Source of the DNA: Chiloscyllium plagiosum
Lineage: Eukaryota
Direction: 5' to 3'
DNA: 64,000 nucleotides
NCBI RefSeq assembly: GCF_004010195.1
Contig: NW_025215380.1
Coordinates: forward strand, 108,428-172,427
Shown here: in pieces, positions 8,901-53,312 of the stretch
Layout: every line of letters begins with the position of its first letter
How positions within the stretch are numbered: position 1 is the first letter of the stretch
Position numbers and translations under genes: made by a program
Notes under the pieces: generated by a model
What the model saw: only the letters and a program-made list of their open reading frames with translations
What the model was told of the DNA's origin: nothing
Database searches by the model: none

Positions 8901-9181
8901 AGATGAATTGGTGCACACACACACAGTACACCAAACATCTTATTGACTCAGATCTGTAAATTAAAACGTGTTAAGACATATACATACTGTAAACAAGATT
9001 TCTCCTTGGCTCAGATTTATGTATTGAATAAATAGATAAACGGACACATATACACCGCACCGAGGGCCTTCTCTCGGTCTCAGATTTATGAATTAAGGCG
9101 ATTCCAGCCTGATGTTGCGGTCTGTGCTATCTAGTGGTTAAAGGGTCTGGAGTTGCTGAGTTTTAATGAAGAGGCACTGAC

Positions 9182-10226
9182 CTGCTGCTGCTGCCCGGCT
9201 CCTGTTGCCTCCCGCGGGGGTTTCTCTCTGGCTCTCCCCGGGTTGTTGGTACCGGGAGCTGCCCGGGACACTGTCCGGCTCCGGGCTGCCGGCTTCCTGC
9301 TGCAGGGCCGCCCTGATACCGGCCAGGAGCCGGGGGAAGGTGAGCCTCCCGCTCGGCGCTGCTGCTCTCCGGAGGCAGCCCATCAGCCCGGGAGGTAGCG
9401 CCGCCTCCCTCCGGCCTTCCCCCGGCCAGCGGCTCTCTATCTCCCGCAGCTCGACCGAGCCCCGACCCTCCTGGTCCAGGATGTCGAACAGGGTCCGCAG
9501 GCTGTGCAGGAACGAGCGGGGCTCCGGGTCCCGGGGATGGGGCTTCCTTGCATTGGGGTCCCTGGGGCTGAGGGCCTGGGGAAGGGGGTCTATGGGATGG
9601 GGGTCCCTGGGGTGGGGGTGGGGTCTCTGGGATTGGGGTCCCTGGGATGGGAGTCTCTGGGATTGGGGTCCCTGGGATGGGAGTCTCTGGGATTGGGGTC
9701 CCTGGGATGGGAGTCTCTGGGATTGGGGTCCCTGGGATGGGAGTCTCTGGGATTGGGGTCCCTGGGATGGGAGTCTCTGGGATTGGGGTCCCTGGGATGG
9801 GAGTCTCTGGGATTGGGGTCCCTGGGATGGGAGTCTCTGGGATTGGGGTCCCTGGGGGTGGGGGCTATGGGATAGGGGTCCCTGAGATGGGAGTCTCTGG
9901 GATTGGGGTCCCTGGGATGGGAGTCTCTGGGATTGGGGTCCCTGGGGTGGGGGTCTATGGGATAGGGGTCCCTGAGATGGGAGTCTCTGGGATTGGGGTC
10001 CCTGGGATGGGAGTCTCTGGGATTGGGGTCCCTGGGGTGGGGGTCTATGGGATAGGGGTCCCTGAGATGGGAGTCTCTGGGATTTGGGGTGGGGGTGGGG
10101 GTCTATGGGATTGGGGTCCCTGGGGTTGGGGTCCCTGAGGTGGGGGTGGGGGTGAAGTTCCCGGGACAGTGGGTCCCGGTGCAGTCTCGGCCGGTTCTCC
10201 CGGTGCAGCTCCTCGGGCCGGCTCAT
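9182..10226 (-). CDS. SAPCD2-like: First coding exon of a suppressor-APC-domain (SAPCD1/SAPCD2 family) gene
   Basis: PRSFLHSLRTLFDILDQEGRGSVELREIESRW..LPPGLMGCLRRAAAPSGRLTFPRLLAGIR closely resembles the human SAPCD2 N-terminus (PRAFLQSLRTLFDILD..LREIESRW..APASGYLTF). ATG at 10226, CpG-rich, donor CAG|GTCAGT after 9182 (phase 1). Later exons not identified; paralog identity uncertain. Confidence 0.88.
9631..10080. repeat. 30-bp G-rich minisatellite (GATTGGGGTCCCTGGGATGGGAGTCTCTGG) x15 with 90-bp higher-order structure
   Basis: Directly visible; lies inside the SAPCD ORF. Confidence 0.97.
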
Positions 10227-10634
10227 TGCTGCAGCCCCCCTCCCGGGGCCAGGCAGAGAGACTCTGCCTTACCCCGTGGGGCTCTCCATGTAGACAGCCC
10301 TGCAGTCTCTCACCCTGCTCCCCGGCTCTGGGAGCTGCAGGACCAGTCCTGGGCGGAGAGCTGAGCTTTGGCCAGAGCTGGCGGGTGGGGGGTGTTTCTC
10401 TGAGAGTGTGTGTGTGCGCGTTTCTAACTTCGGTCCTGGGTGTGTTCCTCTTTCTGTGCATGTGTGTGTGTGTGTGAGGAGCAAATTATTATTTACTTTC
10501 TACACATGCAGGCGTCTTTGTAAAATCCCGGGGTTTCAAAACACTTCTTTTTAAAAGCACAGAAATATAAAAACTATGTGCGTGCTTGTGTGTGTGTGGT
10601 TTTGTATACGTCTGCGTGTGTATACACTTATGAG

Positions 10635-19100: not shown

Positions 19101-22100
19101 GTGGGTGGTGGGGGTAGAGGTAGGGGTGGGGGCTGATGTTTTAACTTGGAATTATTCCTCCCTCAGTGACTGATCAGGCAACAAGTGGGTGGTACATAGC
19201 CCACCAGTCCCAAGAAATTAAGGGTGGGGAAGGTGGAGGGGAGTGAGGAGGTTTTAGATGGAGGAACAGCTTCTGTGAGGGTGAAGTAGACCAGGAGCAG
19301 AGAGGAAAGGCCAGGCGCTTCGGGGCTAAACATGCAGAAGTGATTGTCATGTCCTCAGTAGAAGGAGGAGCTTATCTCTCACCATGGCTCATGTGTATTC
19401 GGGTCCGACCATTCAGGAGAGAGATCAGGAAGCACTCCCACTCACAAAGTGGGATAGAGATTTAAAACCCGCTCCCACATTTGGCAGTGGGTGCTGGATC
19501 AGATGTTAATCTTAAACCTGAGACGGTTAAATCTCTGTTAAGCAAGGATTTGAGGGGGATATGGGCAAACACAGGTAGATGGAGTTAGGCCACAGATTGA
19601 CCATGGATGGCAGAACAGGCTCAAGGGGCTGAATGGCCTCCTCCTGGGTTTCTTTATATCCATTCCGTTACTCGGTGTCTGAACAAATGACCTGGAGATT
19701 GATTTTAACAACTCAGCCGTCTTTTCAAGTTGATGCATGACCGGACTTTCCAATGTGGTTTGTGGTTTGGAGGAGCTGGAACACATCAGCTGCACTTGGT
19801 TTCCTGCCCGTCAACTCCCCGTGTGGCTGATGAAGGAGCTGTGCTGAGTTTGACCTCTCCCCTGTGGAGACACGTCTCTGTTGTCTCTACCCAGAAGCGT
19901 TACCACACGCAACTGAGGGACCTGTCCGCCACCAGGATCACCCAGACCTTCCCCTTTAATGCTTTTTTTTCCACGCCATTAACTGCTGCCAGTGACCACC
20001 CATGCAGCCAATCAAGTATTTCCAAGCAAAGCCCATGTTGGGGAAAGCGAATGTGAGGAAGAAGTGGGCTAAATCGAAATGGAGTTGGAGAGGGGAGATC
20101 AAGCACTGTATCCCCAATGATGCCCACCTCTCTCTCTCTCTCTCTCTAGAGGCATCCTTTGAGACACAAACTGCCCTCAGAAGGCATGTTCCTCCTGCCA
20201 ACAAGCAATGGTCATACCCTGGTCCCAGATTATAATCTGACTGAGGACCCCCTTCCCTCTGCAGGTCAAGAAAATGCTTGTGGTAGTTACAAACGGTTTC
20301 ATAGTTGTATGTGACAGGACCAGTGATAAAAAAATGAGATTGATGTGTGTTTGTGGAATCCAATGTGACACACAATCATGCAGATTCCCTCCTCCCACTT
20401 CCACCCATACTCCCAGGATGCTTCATTGGTTGCCACAGGCTTTAAGACATCAAGAGCTATAATGCGATGACTCCTGTCTGAATAAATGTCTTTTTTTAAA
20501 TTCACATCTGCATTGTAAAGTTGCCCAATTCGTCCTGCTCATCAGCTGCTCAAGTTTTCATCCATGCGTTTGTTACTGTGAAATGGAACTGGTCATGCCA
20601 CCCACGGCCTACATCCGGTCTCAGACAAACCCAGCAGCCCCTCTTCCCTGTTCTTGCTGACAGACATTGCTGCAGCACCTTGTCCAGCTAAGCCCCTACC
20701 GCAGTATTGTCCACTCTCGCTCCCGAATCCCTCCGTGGCCTCACCCCTCCCAAACTCAGGCATCTCCTCCAGTCTCCAAGCCCTCTGTAACCCCCTGATT
20801 CTGACCTTGTCAGCGGCCCACCCCATCCCTGATGGCTTAAACTGCTGCACCCAAGATAGCCATGCAGTCAGCCCTCTGCGACCCTCAGCTCCAAACTCTC
20901 CTCCCTACACCTCGGGCCCTATCTCCCCCAAACCCCCTTCCTCCTGGAAACACGTTCCCTCGACTCAGCTTTCAGTTACCCTTCCTGACCAGGGTAAAGT
21001 ATCAGATTTCATTCAATAGCTGCGCAGGAGACAAAAACACTTTGGAGTATACTACTGCACCGAATGTGCTATATAAATACAGAGTTGTTGTTAGAGTTCA
21101 GATTCCGACTATGTCAAGCATCGCTCATTCCAATGAGCCGGGGTGGGGGGAGGTCATCATGTGACTTTAATTACATAGATATGATACCCAGGGAAGGGCA
21201 TTGTTTAATTAAGTACTTAGAACACTTATTAAGAGAGACTGCTGATTCTATTTTGATTTAATTCCTACTATCCCCCTTCCCTTTTCTGTTTCACATGGGC
21301 ACTGCCCCCCATGGGGCTCAGCTTGTCACTGGTTCCTTGCGTGTTTCTCCTGGTGATGGAATATTCATACATTTATTTACACCTGGTGTTCATGTTGTGN
21401 NNNNNNNNNNNNNNNNNNNNNNNNNNNNNNNNNNNNNNNNNNNNNNNNNNNNNNNNNNNNNNNNNNNNNNNNNNNNNNNNNNNNNNNNNNNNNNNNNNNN
21501 NNNNNNNNNNNNNNNNNNNNNNNNNNNNNNNNNNNNNNNNNNNNNNNNNNNNNNNNNNNNNNNNNNNNNNNNNNNNNNNNNNNNNNNNNNNNNNNNNNNN
21601 NNNNNNNNNNNNNNNNNNNNNNNNNNNNNNNNNNNNNNNNNNNNNNNNNNNNNNNNNNNNNNNNNNNNNNNNNNNNNNNNNNNNNNNNNNNNNNNNNNNN
21701 NNNNTAGTAGTGTAGGGGTGTAACACATAATATATAAATAGGGGAATTAGAAAAAAATGTATAACCAGGAGAGTAGAATCTCCAGAAAAAAACATATAAC
21801 CAGAAGATTAGAATCTCCCCAGTTGAGAAAAAGAAGATTAAGTATTTAGAGCACTTATAAAGAGAGACCGCTAATTTTATTTCGATTGAATCCCTACCCA
21901 CCCCTTCCACTTCTCTCTCATGTAAGCATTGCCCCTACCAGGCCTTCTTGTTACTGGTTCACCGGCCAGATGGGTGGTGGTGTGGAAATATTGAAAAAGG
22001 TTCTTCCCCAATGGTGTCGTTTTTACTCAGTCACTGAGACACACAAGTGCAGGTGATGGCGGCTCTAACGCCAGCACTACAGCGATAGTGTGGGGTATGA

Positions 22101-22759
22101 GAAAAATGAAACAGATATATAAAGCAAGACCATGGAGAGATCCAGGCAGATCGGAGGACCTTCCCGCAGCTCTGCTCCAGAGGACCTGACCAAGGTACAC
22201 TCTTACACGAAGGGATCCAGTAAGGGGGAGAGTCATTGAGAGGGTTGTGATACTCCATGTTACATCAGAAAAGAGCACACAAAGTCTTACTTCAGACCTT
22301 CCATGACCAGCCAGCAAGGGGTGGGTGGGGGGGGGGGGGGGGGGGGGGTTGACTGGGAGTGGGCTATATTGTCTAATTGGCACCTTTTCTTTCGGAATGC
22401 CCCTTCATGTTGCTGCATGCTGGTTGAGTAAAGGTTGGTTCAATCAATGGGGTACAATGACAGAGAGTAGGACGCCCCATGGATCTGTGGCCAGGGGCTG
22501 ACCAAGGTGACCATTAGCAGGGGGCTCCAGAAGGGGGCAGTATTACCTTACCTTCCATCTCTCTCTTCTATCCAATTCTGGGTGATCCTGGAAAGGGAGT
22601 GTGCAGTGTATCACGTTGGACAGTCCACCAGCACAACCACGCAGGAGCTCAAGTGAAGAATCACCTGACAAAACCAAATTACAATCCACATCTCCAAATG
22701 TCATTTGGGGCTTTGTCCTTTGTTGCAATACCCCTTTAATGGGCTTGTTATCGGCTCAT

Positions 22760-23140
22760 ATAGCATGTCCAACTCGTCCGTGCCAACCCAATATCCTCAA
22801 TTATTCTAGACCCATTTGCCAGCCCTTGGCCCATATCCCCCTAAACCCTTCCTATCCATATACCCATCCAGATGCTTTTTAAATGCTGTAATTGTACCAG
22901 CCTCCACCACTTCCTCTGGCAGCTCATTCCATACACGTACCACCCTCTGCGTGAAAAAGTTGCCCCTTAGGTCTCTTTTAAATCTCTCCCCTTCACACTA
23001 AACCTATGCCCTCTGGTTTTGGACTCTTCCATCCCAGGGAGAAGACCTGCCTATTCACCCTATCCATGCCTCTCATGATTTTTTAAACCTCTATAAGGTG
23101 ACCCCTCAGCCTCCAGTGCTCCAGGGAAAACAGCCAAGGT
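22760..23140 (-). mobile_element. CR1/HER1-type LINE 3' end
   Basis: Same 3' sequence as 10635-11015. Confidence 0.85.
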
Positions 23141-23619
23141 TTACTTGTTCATTAGGATTAAGTTAGTTGAATCAGTTGTTTTTAAATTCATTCATAGGAT
23201 ATGGGCATATTGTCCATCCCTAATCGACCAGAGGGCAGTTAGGAGTCAACCCCATCGCTGTGGGTCTGGAGTCACATGTAGGCCAGACCAGGTAAGGATA
23301 GCAGTGTCCTTCCCTAAAGGGCATCAGTGAACCAGGTGGGGTTTTCACCTGACAATCGGAAATGAGTCCATGGTTATCATTAGACACTTATTTTCAGATT
23401 ATTGTTGATTCCAAAGTCCACAGCAGGATTTGAACACAGGTTCACAGAACATTACCTGAGTCTCTGCATTAATAGTCTAGAGGTGATACCATTAAGTTAG
23501 CACAGCCCCATAGGCAATATGGATTATAAGCAAACCACAGCATAAAGAGGGACATGGTGTTGTTAGATGGGAGGCAAGCAGATGTAATGCTGCATTCTAT
23601 AAGAAATAGAGTCTTCTCC

Positions 23620-24165
23620 AGGGTGGGGGTGGGGAGAAAGTAGCATAGAGTACAATAGGTGAGTGGGGGAGGGGATGAAGGTGATAGGTCAGGGAGGAGA
23701 GGGTGGAGTGGATAGGTGGAAAAGGAGATAGGCAGGTCGGACAAGTCCGGACAAGTCAAGGGGACAGTGTGGAGCTGGAGGTTTGAAACTAGGGTGAGGT
23801 GGGGGAAGGGGAAATGAGGAAGACTGTTGAAGTCCATATTGATGCCCTGGGGTTGAAGTGTTCAGAGGTAGAAGATGAGACGTTCTTCCTCCAGGCGTCT
23901 GGTGGTGAGGCAGCGGGGTGAAGGAGGCCCAGGACCTCCATGTCCTCGGCAGAGTGGGAGGGGGAGTTGAAATGTTGGGCCACGGGGCGGTTTGGTCGAT
24001 TGGTGCGGGTGCCCCACCCCCACCCTCCTCTAGCTTATCTCTCCACCCTTCAGGCTCTCTGCCTTTATTCCTGATGAAGGGCTTTTGCCCGAAACGTCGG
24101 TTTTGCTGCTCGTCGGATGCTGCCTGAACTGCTGTGCTCTTCCAGCACCACTGATCCAGAATTCA
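23620..24165 (-). mobile_element. Penelope-like element 3' fragment with inverted terminal piece
   Basis: AQHFNSPSHSAEDMEVLGLLH (GIY-YIG C-terminal part); intact hammerhead-like core on + at 24071-24098. Confidence 0.8.
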
Positions 24166-24387
24166 CATGCCTGTGCTGATTTGGCATGTTGCTTGGGATC
24201 CGTTTAACCACTTAAAGTCAACGTGTTGTTCAGAAATGGAATTCAAAAGGAAGCAAAACATAACCAGATGTAAGGGTGTTGAAGAGGGAGCCAGAGGAGC
24301 TGGAATTCAGCGGAGACCTTTCCAATGGGCTAGCAGAGGTACAAAGGGTCGAACAGTCTACAATCTCTGCGATATCGTTCCAATACT

Positions 24388-24701
24388 TCACGATTTATGG
24401 CCAAGTGAAAGGAAATTCAGTGAGTGGTTAAGTCCTCTATCGATCAGACATGCCCTTCGATAGACCATCATAATTCCCAGGAAAGTCAAGAGCTTCCCAC
24501 AGATAAGTGAGACCGCAGAATAGACAATAAATGCTGGCATCTTGTTGGGAGACCATGGACTGGGACTAGGGTTATCTCCTATACTCTCATCGTCAAAGCC
24601 CGATCCCAACTCAGAAAAATCAGCGCTTAGCTCTGAATCTGCGTCGTCGGTCGTTAATCCTGAAGATGGATCTTCAAAATCCGTGGACCAGGAGCACGCC
24701 C
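24388..24701 (-). CDS. Exon 2 (last coding exon) of a predicted small type I membrane protein
   Basis: Acceptor ctctacctttaaag|GG (phase 1); open frame GACSWSTDFEDPSSGLTTDDADSELSADFSELGSGFDDESIGDNPSPSPWSPNKMPAFIVYSAVSLICGKLLTFLGIMMVYRRACLIDRGLNHSLNFLSLGHKS*. Confidence 0.65.
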
Positions 24702-25334
24702 CTTTAAAGGTAGAGGTTTTTGAGAGTGAATTTCAGACTTAAATCTCACAGAGTAGTGGACTGTTCACTTCAGAACTCACATTGACAATCTCCACGGCCT
24801 AACTCCAGCCATGTTCAGTGGTCCAAAACAGAGAACAACCATGGAACAACAATGAGGAATTTCCTCAGTCGCACTCCCTGTTGTCATGACAATGGATCAT
24901 ATCCCCGGATTACCGGTGGGGAAATTGAACTTTTAATTGCAACATGGGTTTTTTTTTTTAGGAGAGACCACAGTATAACTGTTGATGTAACTTCAGTGAC
25001 CTTCTAGCAAAGCTTTGGAAAGAATCATAGGATATCACACCGGAAGGAACCGAGGCACTTTCAAGAGGAGAAATGTAATTCAAAACAAATTAGGTATGAT
25101 CTCCAGTGATTTTCTCTTCAGAAACATGATCAGCCCCTCTCTGTAGCCATCTCCTGTGGCTTATGTCCCCATCTATAATCATTAACTTTCCAGTAATATG
25201 CAACAAAAAGGCTTAAAATCCAACTGTATCTTGTGGTTTGGGAATATTAGAGGGCTGATCAGACAATATAGGCTAGTGCCCTGTGACAATCACAACTTGA
25301 GTACAGCCAGGGGACATGCCTACATTGTAAATAA

Positions 25335-26160
25335 AGAGTCATAGAGCTGTACAGCACTGAAACAGACCCTTTGGTCCAACTCGTCCATGCAACCAGATAT
25401 CTTAAATACATCTAGTTCAATTTACCAGCATTTGGCTATTCATATACCAATCCAGATGCCTTTTAAATATTATAATTGTGTTATACTAACAATTATAATA
25501 CTCTTGCATACACGCATCACGCTCTCCATGATAAAATTGCCCCAACTTGGCTTTTAAGTCCCTAATTTTGGGCTCCCCTATCCTTGGGAAACGATCTTGT
25601 CTATTTATTTTATCCATGCCCCTTCTGATTTTATAAACCTCTACAAGGTTACCCCTCAGTTTCCAAGGAAAATAGCCCCAGCCGATTCAGCCTCTCCTTT
25701 TAGCTCAAACTCTCCAACCCTGGCAAACTCTCCAACCCTGGCAAACTCTCCAACCCTGGCAAACTCTCCAACCTGGCAAACTCTCCAACCCTGACAAACT
25801 CTCCAACCCTGGTAACATTGTTGTAAATCTTTTCTGAACCTTTTCAATTTCAACAACATGGTTCCAACAGCAAGGAGACCAGAATTGAATAAAGCATTCT
25901 AAAGTGGCCCAAACAATGTCCTGTGTGGCTACAATGTGACTGCCCAACTCCTATACTCAACACACTGACCAAGTGTACCAAACACCTTCTTCATTATCCT
26001 GTCTACCGCGGCTCCACTTTCAAGGAACTATGAACCTGCGCTCAAATGTTTCTTTGTTCAGCAACCGTCCCCAGGACCTTGCCATTAAGTCCTGCCCTGA
26101 TTTGCTTTTCCAAAATATAACGCCTCACATTTATCTAAATTAAACTCCACCTGTCACTCT
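25335..26160 (-). mobile_element. CR1/HER1-type LINE fragment containing an 18-bp tandem expansion (CAAACTCTCCAACCCTGG, about 25706-25812)
   Basis: CR1 ORF2 C-terminal motifs; the repeat is directly visible. Confidence 0.85.
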
Positions 26161-26781
26161 CTCGTTTTAAGTACTGCAGGTCAGAGTAGACGGTATAAAC
26201 AACTTGGAAACAGGAACAGAACTAACTTGCAGACCTATGAACACCTTTAAGACCGACATCAGGGTTAATAGTATTGTAAGTTCTACTCTTACAAGTAATA
26301 ATTTGTTTGTCTTTTCTAACTCAGTGCCAGTTTCTAATCCATCTGCATGCAGGACACGTTTTGTAAAATCATTTTTTTTTCGTGATTAGCAGTTAACAAA
26401 CTCATTCTTTTTAAACTCAACAATTCCTGCCTGGATAATTTCGATCCTTTTAAAAACACCAGTACCTTTGGATTCGGGAAGTTCATCACAAGAGAATAAA
26501 TCCTTTTCAAACTAATCCTGTTGAAAATGACTGAGAGAGAGAGTGAATAAAGAAGGGGAGCGAGTTAATCATTCCTCACTTGGCAGCATCATGGTTTCAG
26601 GGTACCCTGAAGAGTGAATGGGGCACGATGACTGGTGGGAGTCAGGGGGTGAGCTTGGGACAGCAGTAACAATGTCTACCCTGGAGATTCCGAGAATTGA
26701 TAACCCTCACTCAGACATGCAGTGAAACATTTCAAATAACATAACATCAGCATGGTTCTTTCGACAAAGAGAAACACTTAC

Positions 26782-26836
26782 CAAAAACGTAAAGTGACAG
26801 AATGGTTGTGAAATGGATGCTGAATTTCCCAGTCAT
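26782..26836 (-). CDS. Exon 1 (signal-peptide leader) of the predicted small membrane protein
   Basis: ATG at 26836, MTGKFSIHFTTILSLYVF-G, consensus phase-1 donor G|GTAAGT; joins in frame to 24701. Confidence 0.62.
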
Positions 26837-27118
26837 TCTCTCCAAGCTCCGATTTCAGCTGGAGTTTGAAGGCTTCTCAGCTAACCCCTTAAGCTTGCAG
26901 TTTGAGGAACACATTCGTCATCTTCACACAGTTATTTAACCAAAAAAGGAAACAGATGGAAGTGCAGAAATTGCACACGAAATGCCACAATGTTCCTGGT
27001 GGCTAGAATGCTAACGCGTCCTTTTCCATGCAACAGCTGAAAAAGAATGCTTGGGTAAAGTTTTCAACAGGATACATCTCCACCCACCCAGTCTCACGTA
27101 CCAACAACCTCACACTCT

Positions 27119-45600: not shown

Positions 45601-45762
45601 TTATCTCGTTGGTCTTTGACTCTGTAGCGTCCGGTCGAGGGCTTTAAATAGCGGCGGCGGCTGCGGGCGATTCCTCATTTTCCAGTGATAGGCGAGAGAG
45701 GCAAAGACACCCCTGAGCTTGGACACCCACCGCTCACCCACACACCCCTTACCCCCGCGGTC

Positions 45763-46530
45763 ATGGCCGACACCCTGGCGGCCCGAAAAAAGGGCAGGAA
45801 GGGTAAGGCCCTGCCACCGCCCCCCTCCGCCGCCCGGAGCAGCTCCACAGTGTCCGAGCGCATCCTGGAGGCGGTGGCGGCGGCCGGTACCAAGAAGGGC
45901 CGCCGCGGTCTGTCGCTGGCCGCCCTCAAGAAGTTGCTGTCGGGCAACGGCTACGACGTGGCGGCCAACCGCTGGCGGCTCAAGCAGGCGGTCCGCAACT
46001 TGGTGGCCAAGGGCTCCCTGGTGCAGACCTCGGGCAGCGGCGCCTCGGGCTCCTTCAAGCTCGGCAGCACCAAGGCGCAGAGGGAAGCGGAGACCGCCGT
46101 CCGCGGCGCCGAAAGCAAGAACAAACTGAGAAGGGGTGGCGAGATGCTGCCGTCTCCGCCGTCTTCCGCCAGCTCCTCCGCGGCCGCCCACCCGCCCATC
46201 GGCGCCGCCTCCGTCTCCAACCGGCGCAAACCCCGGAAGCCCGCCGCCGCCAAGAGACCCAAGAGGAGCGTGGCGCCCAAAAAGACCAGGCCGAGGTCCG
46301 GCAGAGTCGGCAGGAGAGAACCGATGGGCCGCCGCACCGCCAGGGGACCCAAGCCCGGGAGGAAGGCGGCAGCTAGGGCCGGCCCTCGGAGAGCCAAGCG
46401 CCGGCCGGCCAAACCCAGGAAAGCGGCCAACACCCTGGAGGAAGCGAGTAAACACCCGTCTCAGGAAGAGGTCTCCGCCTCGGCGAAGGCAAACCAGGGC
46501 GGCTCGGACACACAGAACAGCAGCAGCTGA
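45763..46530 (+). CDS. H1: Divergent Arg-rich histone H1-family protein B (255 aa)
   Basis: ATG in good context (GTCATGG); VSERILEAVAAAGTKKGRRGLSLAALKKLLSGNGYDV..LVAKGSLVQTSGSGASGSFKL; TTTAAATA box at 45643-45650. Confidence 0.96.
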   Translation: MADTLAARKKGRKGKALPPPPSAARSSSTVSERILEAVAAAGTKKGRRGLSLAALKKLLSGNGYDVAANRWRLKQAVRNLVAKGSLVQTSGSGASGSFKLGSTKAQREAETAVRGAESKNKLRRGGEMLPSPPSSASSSAAAHPPIGAASVSNRRKPRKPAAAKRPKRSVAPKKTRPRSGRVGRREPMGRRTARGPKPGRKAAARAGPRRAKRRPAKPRKAANTLEEASKHPSQEEVSASAKANQGGSDTQNSSS

Positions 46531-52084: not shown

Positions 52085-53098
52085 TCAGTATCTCCTCTGG
52101 CGGACGCCCAGCTTCTTGCCCCGGGATACCCGCGGCTTCCCGCGGGAGCCGCCGTACCCGGGCACCCTCCGGCCGCGGTGACGGGCCGCCGGCCTGTACT
52201 TGCCGTAGAGCCGGGCCGGCCTCCGGGCGGGAGACGGGTAGTAGTAGTAATAGTAGGTGGCCACGGAGGGAGAAAGGCTGGAGCTGGTCTTCAGGCGGAC
52301 GCTCTTGGCCCGACCCCGGCGGCCGGTGGCGGTGACGCGCGGTTTGCGGCGGCCTCTTCTCCCCCCGTCGCGGCGGGAGCGGGCTCGCTGCTGCTGGCGG
52401 CGGCGGACAGTCCGGACGGTCACCTTCCGACCCTTGGAACCTGCTCCCGTCCAAGTCCCTCCTCCGGCGGCGCCCACGGTGTCTCTGCGCCGGGTGGACT
52501 TCTTCCGGAGGCGGGCCGGTGGCGACCTCCGGGAGACGGGGTTTTGGTGCCGGCGTTTGACCGCCCCACGTTTCTTCTTGGCTTTGTCCTTGTCCTTGTC
52601 CTTCTTTAAGCCGCTGCTGCCGCCGCCTGCACCTCCGACACCGACGGCGGAGCGGTTGAAGCGGAACGAGCCCGAGGCGCCGATGCCCGCCGTCTGCACC
52701 AAGGAGCCGTTACGGACCAGGTTCTTCACCGTCTGGTTGACCCGCGTGTTGTTGCGGCTCACGTCGTAGCCCTTGGCCGAGAGAGCCTTCTTGAGGGCGG
52801 CCAGCGAGATGCCCCGCCGCTCTTTGGTGGCGGCGGCGACCTGCAGGATCTGCTCGGCTATGGTGAGCTCCTTCTTCTTGCGGCGCTGCGGACAGCGGGG
52901 CTGGGGCTGCTGCTGTTGTTGCAGATTCTGCTGCTGCGTCTGGTTCAACTGCTGCGGTTGTTGCTGCTGCTGCTGGGTTTGCTGCTTCTTCTTCTTACCC
53001 GCCCCCTTCTCGGCGCCTGCTCGAGGGTGCGAGCCGGGCGGCCTCCCCCCTCCACCCGAGTCCCCGGCATCGTCCACCTTCCGGCTGCCGTCGGCCAT
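52085..53098 (-). CDS. H1: H1-family / protamine-like protein D (337 aa): poly-Gln N-tail, winged helix, long Arg/Gly/Tyr C-tail
   Basis: ATG at 53098 (GGCATGG); IAEQILQVAAATKERRGISLAALKKALSAKGYDVSRNNTRV..LVRNGSLVQTAGIGASGSFRFN; stem-loop downstream. Confidence 0.95.
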   Translation of the reverse strand: MADGSRKVDDAGDSGGGGRPPGSHPRAGAEKGAGKKKKQQTQQQQQQPQQLNQTQQQNLQQQQQPQPRCPQRRKKKELTIAEQILQVAAATKERRGISLAALKKALSAKGYDVSRNNTRVNQTVKNLVRNGSLVQTAGIGASGSFRFNRSAVGVGGAGGGSSGLKKDKDKDKAKKKRGAVKRRHQNPVSRRSPPARLRKKSTRRRDTVGAAGGGTWTGAGSKGRKVTVRTVRRRQQQRARSRRDGGRRGRRKPRVTATGRRGRAKSVRLKTSSSLSPSVATYYYYYYPSPARRPARLYGKYRPAARHRGRRVPGYGGSRGKPRVSRGKKLGVRQRRY

Positions 53099-53312
53099 GC
53101 CTTCCTCCACCCCGGCCCGCCAAAGCTGGTGGTCGTTGTTGTTTTCCTCTTCAGTCTCGTATCTTCAATGTTGAGTTTTCTTCCAACGCACGCAAATTTT
53201 CAAATTTAAAATGATGGAGAGCAACACCGAAGCGATGAAGGGGGAAATGCAAATCTCCCACTGACCAGCCCAACGACGGTCAAGAAAAGCCCCTGCAGGT
53301 TCGGAACCGCCG

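Follow-up and report, generated by a model that had tools for sequence, protein, structure and literature searches.

The minus strand of the window (the whole 64,000-nucleotide stretch of Chiloscyllium plagiosum DNA analysed here) carries a single-copy gene with two coding exons, located by synteny in the MHC class III region. In our opinion this unnamed gene most probably acts in the way a charge-paired activating receptor does, without belonging to any Ig or lectin receptor family. More specifically, we consider it about an even bet (probability roughly 0.5) that its product is a domain-less type I protein which pairs, through a conserved lysine in its membrane helix, with an adaptor carrying an aspartate pair (DAP12- or CD3-type), and serves as an activating receptor or co-receptor.

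The coding part of exon 1 (26782-26836, minus strand) is 55 nt long, that is 18 codons and one further nucleotide of a signal-peptide leader, and ends at the donor G|GTAAGT. Its ATG has an A at -3 and an in-frame stop directly upstream. A GT...AG intron of 2080 nt (24702-26781, minus strand), which contains pieces of LINE-like repeats, separates it from the 314-nt coding part of exon 2 (24388-24701, minus strand), where Cys-Ser-Trp, an acidic stalk, the membrane helix, Arg-Arg, a short tail and a TGA follow one another; the phase-1 join gives one frame of 122 amino acids plus stop. This two-exon model had been proposed in an earlier note on the same DNA, and an independent gene model from Chiloscyllium punctatum, chiPu_0019916 (GCC21444.1; P0002, 137 aa), indeed has the same junction: it maps to both exons and is 88% identical over exon 2. 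The leader exon matches the N-terminus of P0002 and also that of the catshark model scyTo_0019692 (GCB74951.1; P0004, 116 aa), and the join of leader to exon 2 thus has the backing of both public models. A separate observation is that past the TGA (24388-24358) the frame reads 10 more codons matching the C. punctatum C-terminus; a stop must therefore have been gained or lost in one lineage.

Protein, profile and DNA searches of the genome find the gene only once, and the DNA at 26760-27050 is likewise single copy. Neither a paralogous membrane segment nor an inhibitory paralogue or multigene family of the protein was found in this genome. Weak matches of the protein on C21, C2 and C31 (E 4.9-6.4) have no membrane lysine and look like chance.

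Run data were compared for 4 of the 18 listed runs over 21750-27100; the type of run X4 is not on record, and run X1, which comes from another study, is RNA by our guess. Contig 16 of X4 (584 nt) equals 24135-24702 with no differences, and its last 16 letters depart from the intron. The last letters of the leader exon are TG and those of the intron AG, one G being shared, so a spliced molecule is expected to match to exactly 24702. Splicing at the acceptor 24701 is thus strongly indicated, and the partner exon is presumably the leader. The 24701/26782 joint is absent among the 15 joints listed (64 more exist). As regards the check proposed in the earlier note, reads spanning 26782/24701, a contig leaves the genome exactly at the predicted acceptor. 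Depth in X4 is 6.7-9.4 over unique stretches of the last exon down to 21971 and 0-0.65 in unique bins of the intron; high depth in the last exon together with low depth in the intron is the pattern of spliced RNA, with a 3' untranslated region of about 2.4 kb. This long untranslated part (21971-24387, minus strand), which includes repeats, is covered by X4 contigs 9, 10, 14 and 16, and two exact contigs of X1 (1 and 8) also fall within the last exon. Neither single-cell run gives usable coverage: for X7 (about 2% read) a single bin of exon 2 reaches a depth of 0.12, while nothing from X8 falls on 21750-27100.

The placement of polyadenylation at the AATAAA of 24064-24069, as first suggested, must be corrected. 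This hexamer lies where a high-copy repeat (24067-24151) ends; 264 kb contain 14 copies of this repeat end, of which 3 carry the hexamer. The last exon moreover extends about 2.4 kb further. Since X4 contigs continue to 21971, the AATAAA at 21876-21881 (minus strand), some 90 nt beyond the point where coverage stops, is more likely the working signal.

Upstream of the gene, the TATA-like, ETS and E-box motifs are present where they had been reported, as is the AATAAA just discussed. They comprise TTAAATAA (26932-26939, minus strand, about 96 nt before the ATG) and a cluster of an ETS core, an E-box (CAGATG) and a further ETS site (GGAAGTG) at 26948-26964, which may be a blood-cell promoter element. 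A hexamer at 26984-26989 (minus strand) resembles the RUNX consensus, and the chance of one such hexamer in 200 bp is about 0.2. The 264 kb examined contain 8 instances of an E-box and an ETS site within 6 nt of each other. Because these upstream motifs are short and picked post hoc, as were the RUNX-like hexamer and the E-box/ETS cluster (the latter graded weak), we put little weight on them. Expression in blood cells would be suggested solely by the MHC location and these promoter motifs.

From N- to C-terminus, the 122-aa product consists of a hydrophobic leader, a stalk of 48 residues, a hydrophobic segment of 25, Arg-Arg and a short tail. Hydropathy and an AlphaFold model based on a three-row alignment (leader helix, a coil with pLDDT below 50, membrane helix) predict a type I chain with a signal peptide and one transmembrane helix. 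Cys-Ser-Trp (residues 21-23, 24688-24696, minus strand), invariant in three of three sharks, would either close the signal peptide or begin the mature chain. The acidic Ser-Gly stalk, the lysine in the helix and the Arg-Arg that had been described earlier are all confirmed, at residues 32/52, 88 and 100-101. In the stalk there are 13 Asp/Glu and 11 Ser residues and no Lys, Arg or Cys. Candidate glycosaminoglycan sites are Ser32-Gly33 (24658-24663, minus strand) and, as the better candidate, Ser52-Gly53 among Asp/Glu (24598-24603, minus strand), which has an aligned Ser-Gly in the catshark. The consensus for attachment is Ser-Gly close to acidic residues, and calls made from the motif alone are described as unreliable (PMC8418075); attachment at these sites is a prediction from the motif. 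Ser-Gly among acidic residues is present in all three sharks, with two Ser-Gly sites here, two in P0002 and four in the catshark. Measured against stalk composition, their number gives p of about 0.23 here (0.23-0.27 in the bamboo sharks) and about 0.007 in the catshark; only in the catshark do the sites exceed composition.

The hydrophobic segment (residues 75-99, 24460-24534, minus strand) lies between Lys-Met-Pro and Arg-Arg. Lys88 (24493-24495, minus strand) is the 14th of its 25 residues and stands 12 residues from the cytoplasmic end, before Arg-Arg, in all three shark sequences; in terms of a helix of 22-23 residues it occupies position 11-12, the exact start of the helix being a prediction. 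From Arg-Arg onwards the tails differ (3, 23 and 33 aa, the catshark chain stopping at Arg-Arg-Lys), and a YxxL/I/V motif of ITAM or ITIM type is absent from all three.

The orthologues were found in two ways. Of five candidates from a word-index search, the one returned was C. punctatum chiPu_0019916. An exhaustive search of 1.84 billion proteins gave four matches, namely the query, two repetitive insect proteins and scyTo_0019692 (39% identity, E 1.3e-5). The insect matches, from leafhoppers, cover only residues 8-52 and were dropped. The best match of P0004 in this genome is in turn this locus (E 0.00145), a reciprocal best hit. When the sequence was shuffled (n=3000), the real match to P0004 was equalled or exceeded by 0 shuffles for exon 2, 0 for the transmembrane region, 6 for the stalk and 1 for the leader. 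A profile search among 4546 candidates retrieved only the two members of the profile itself. All three sharks keep the leader, and their invariant features include Cys-Ser-Trp, acidic Ser-Gly, Lys-Met-Pro, the lysine followed by Leu-Leu, and Arg-Arg, so that the lysine and Ser-Gly, whose conservation in other chondrichthyans had been named as a check, are kept in the catshark orthologue. The conservation of the lysine counts as two independent lineages, in a segment where 8 of 25 positions are identical anyway. The two orders represented here diverged some 170-200 million years ago. Public records name P0002 and P0004 only as 'hypothetical' or 'uncharacterized', and a literature search, with subscription journals largely outside its coverage, found no paper naming chiPu_0019916 or scyTo_0019692.

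The earlier note had further described the protein as domain-less and of no assignable family, and the searches agree; nor did they find an Ig exon. Pfam gives no family match (E up to 1 or 10), including syndecan, podoplanin and glycophorin; a PDB sequence search returns one flagellin match (E 0.48); a fold search with the low-confidence model finds no relative. Of the 88 frames scanned on the minus strand from 10.3 to 36.9 kb (drawn from 399 low-repeat frames of at least 45 aa in the window), none matches an Ig family and two have sub-threshold matches to unrelated families. The intron at 24702-26781 contains no Ig motif and no N, the three N stretches falling outside the span from leader to membrane helix. 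A weak search for a longer form of the protein gave 0 of 8000 candidates. In the Atlas there is no usable feature match for P0002, and P0004 has si:dkey-262k9.2-like proteins, SNORC, podoplanin, glycophorin and syndecan as its neighbours by language model, with scores of 0.83-0.86, below 0.9; SNORC and podoplanin score 0.85-0.86.

The gene sits between a frame containing exon 1 of a SAPCD gene (9138-10268, minus strand; PF25825, E 1e-21) and a histone cluster of H4, H2B and several H1-like genes (36942-57516). Other features of the 281-kb scaffold are tRNA-ligase exons (PF08264, E 1e-15), which we take to be VARS1, more exons of SAPCD (PF11414) and, by a weak match (E 0.027), an NT-C2/FAM102-like exon. 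In humans vars1, abhd16a, nfkbil1, csnk2b and others are class III genes. The MHC chromosome of the sawfish is given in the order vars1, SAPCD-like, histones, FAM102A-like, abhd16a, nfkbil1, csnk2b (PMC10751288), and the MHC chromosomes of white shark and catshark have a matching order, judged by symbol and gene size in its supplement. On this synteny the gene is placed in class III. The SAPCD-H4 slot is unannotated in the sawfish, where NCR3-like genes are about 0.7 Mb away (PMC10751288). On the same strand in that slot are LOC121291375 (79 kb) in white shark and LOC119975953 (34 kb) in S. canicula, products unnamed in the table; both are possible orthologues whose introns would be longer or whose exons would be more numerous. 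MSH5 and VWA7 were considered as identities of the slot gene in other sharks, and both symbols are absent from the shark and sawfish sheets of the supplement (PMC10751288). Many class III neighbours are housekeeping and not immune genes.

Several features of the surroundings deserve mention in their own right. Left of the window the scaffold looks mis-ordered, with VARS1-like 3' exons on the plus strand, later SAPCD exons on the minus strand, VARS1-like 5' exons on the minus strand and then SAPCD exon 1; in other elasmobranchs vars1 and the SAPCD-like gene are tail to tail. Within the frame of the first SAPCD exon, a tandem array of 15-bp units (9572-10138) encodes a Gln/Ser/Pro-rich repeat before the SAPC2_N domain. 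The histone cluster includes several divergent H1-like genes whose N- and C-terminal extensions are long and unusual (among them 52085-53164 and 45652-46530), and an H2B-like gene has a Ser/Ala-rich N-terminus; histone-like genes also flank vars1 in the sawfish. Between the histones and the FAM102-like gene, an open frame (L017:3774-3995, minus strand) that begins like a signal peptide and matches nothing in Pfam is possibly another unnamed class III gene.

How would such a protein work? Receptors that use DAP12 have a central lysine, at position 7-12 of 20-23, and such a lysine in any hydrophobic helix suffices, even when placed in poly-leucine (Feng et al. 2006, PMC1440944). According to the same source, the bulk of an ectodomain keeps helices off CD3 dimers, and transmembrane peptides free of it bind a CD3 dimer. 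FcR-gamma is an unlikely partner, because its receptors use an N-terminal arginine (PMC1440944) and here the lysine is central. A short, motif-less, divergent tail is the usual mark of an activating receptor (PMC4701786, PMC3031540). Given a lysine 12 residues from the cytoplasmic end in three of three sequences and tails that diverge and lack motifs, we infer by analogy that the chain, predicted to be type I, would pair with an Asp-pair signalling dimer, of DAP12 type in the first place and CD3 in the second. The acidic Ser-Gly stalk would carry glycosaminoglycan or O-glycan chains, and this glycan-bearing stalk, in place of a fold, might speculatively bind basic ligands or lectins. The protein would then act as an activating receptor or co-receptor, perhaps in blood cells as the location and promoter motifs suggest. 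A more daring version, which we offer tentatively and would not bet on, is an ITAM-coupled signalling proteoglycan of class III, whose sugar chain senses the ligand and whose lysine wires it to DAP12 or CD3, possibly as a CD3-binding surrogate in T cells.

With regard to the partners, a zeta/FcR-gamma-type transmembrane exon exists in this genome, and so do CD3-like exons with a central aspartate. Exons of DAP12 or DAP10 were not found in this assembly by weak exon-level searches (a DAP10 profile and CD3-TM seeds); a literature search found no report placing DAP12 in sharks, and the elephant-shark supplement is free of adaptor names. At G000:C35:133000-210000 there are four CD3-like exons with CxxC and a transmembrane segment, the normally acidic position being Asp, Ser, Asn and Asp, so that two chains are without charge; the Asn-type exon is found twice, beside an N gap.

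It is possible, if rather doubtful in our opinion, that the protein has no immune role and is a small membrane proteoglycan or mucin, comparable in function to SNORC, podoplanin or a minimal syndecan, which would serve as a co-receptor for growth factors or matrix. Its lysine would then be there for another membrane partner or for quality control, and its place in the MHC would be incidental. Size and layout do resemble SNORC, a type I protein of 121 aa with one chondroitin-sulfate serine (PMC7210984); the language-model neighbours named above point the same way, as leads only, and the single copy would suit such a gene. On the other hand, SNORC itself is a different gene: the true one is on another chromosome (G000:C13, E 9e-9), its membrane segment has no central lysine, it does not align with the P0002/P0004 family (probability 0.2) and the latter has no PF15756 match, hence we rejected this identity. 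Pfam matches to the other families are missing as well, and a buried lysine kept in two shark orders is not explained by a proteoglycan role.

The charge-paired reading also has to be set against other origins. A phase-1/1 exon can be lost leaving the frame intact, and a phase-1 leader followed by a stalk/transmembrane exon is just what would be left over if such an Ig exon had been lost or skipped in an NCR3-, TREM- or MDIR-like receptor gene; the long same-slot genes of white shark and S. canicula, LOC121291375 (79 kb) and LOC119975953 (34 kb), could be read in the same sense. Against a remnant or short isoform of this kind stand the blank Ig scan of the 88 frames and of the gapless intron, the two orthologue models that join leader straight to stalk, the search for a longer form (weak as it was) and the missing paralogous membrane segment. 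We consider it unlikely, and an Ig-remnant origin would in any case be compatible with the lysine-adaptor mechanism. Still a little less probable to us is a chain of the T lineage that binds CD3 and, itself domain-less, acts as a surrogate for the TCR complex or modulates it, much like pre-TCR-alpha. Bare Lys/Arg transmembrane peptides do assemble with a CD3 dimer (PMC1440944), CD3-like exons with aspartate were found here and DAP12 was not, and the gene has ETS/E-box/RUNX-like motifs upstream and MHC linkage; but it has one basic membrane residue against the Arg-plus-Lys pair of TCR-alpha and pre-TCR-alpha, the stalks of all three sharks are free of cysteine and allow no chain-to-chain disulfide, there is no Ig domain, and the promoter motifs were chosen post hoc. 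That the locus is a chance frame or a pseudogene is very improbable and already largely refuted: its unread junction, a modest pyrimidine tract at the acceptor (rank 27 of 223 AG sites) and a frame 10 codons shorter than in C. punctatum are outweighed by intact orthologue models in two shark orders and by exon-shaped coverage that ends at the acceptor.

With this finding the class III region, which has already yielded UrIg and NKp30 (PMC10751288), gains a further membrane gene, one that is unnamed, single-copy and divergent (39% identity to catshark). Reconstructions of the ancestral immune complex draw on the elasmobranch MHC. In the literature cited here, the receptors described as charge-paired are of the Ig or lectin families. 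If the charge-paired reading is true, this would be a domain-less receptor of that kind, and a glycan-bearing coil could feed an ITAM module.

Among known systems, chiPu_0019916 and scyTo_0019692 are orthologues of this gene. SNORC (C2orf82, PF15756) is alike in having about 120 aa, type I topology, an acidic disordered ectodomain with Ser-Gly and a short tail, and differs in its other chromosome, its three exons in mammals, the missing membrane lysine and the failure to align. NCR3 (NKp30) and UrIg share the chromosomal region and are built of V or VJ-C1 Ig domains (PMC10751288), to which no similarity was detected here. A comparison can also be drawn with pre-TCR-alpha, a short chain with a basic membrane residue for the acidic pairs of CD3 type, whose second basic residue and connecting-peptide cysteine are missing here. 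TCR-alpha and pre-TCR-alpha combine Arg plus Lys with a connecting-peptide Cys, and pre-TCR-alpha has an Ig-less isoform. TREM, NKp44, CD300 and SIRP-beta are DAP12-associated type I receptors. Receptors of this class (also KIR2DS) have an Ig or lectin ectodomain; the 122-aa protein has no folded Ig or C-type lectin ectodomain but an acidic Ser/Gly/Pro coil, and its gene is single copy with no inhibitory twin found. What they have in common is a type I chain, a central lysine in the membrane and a motif-less tail.
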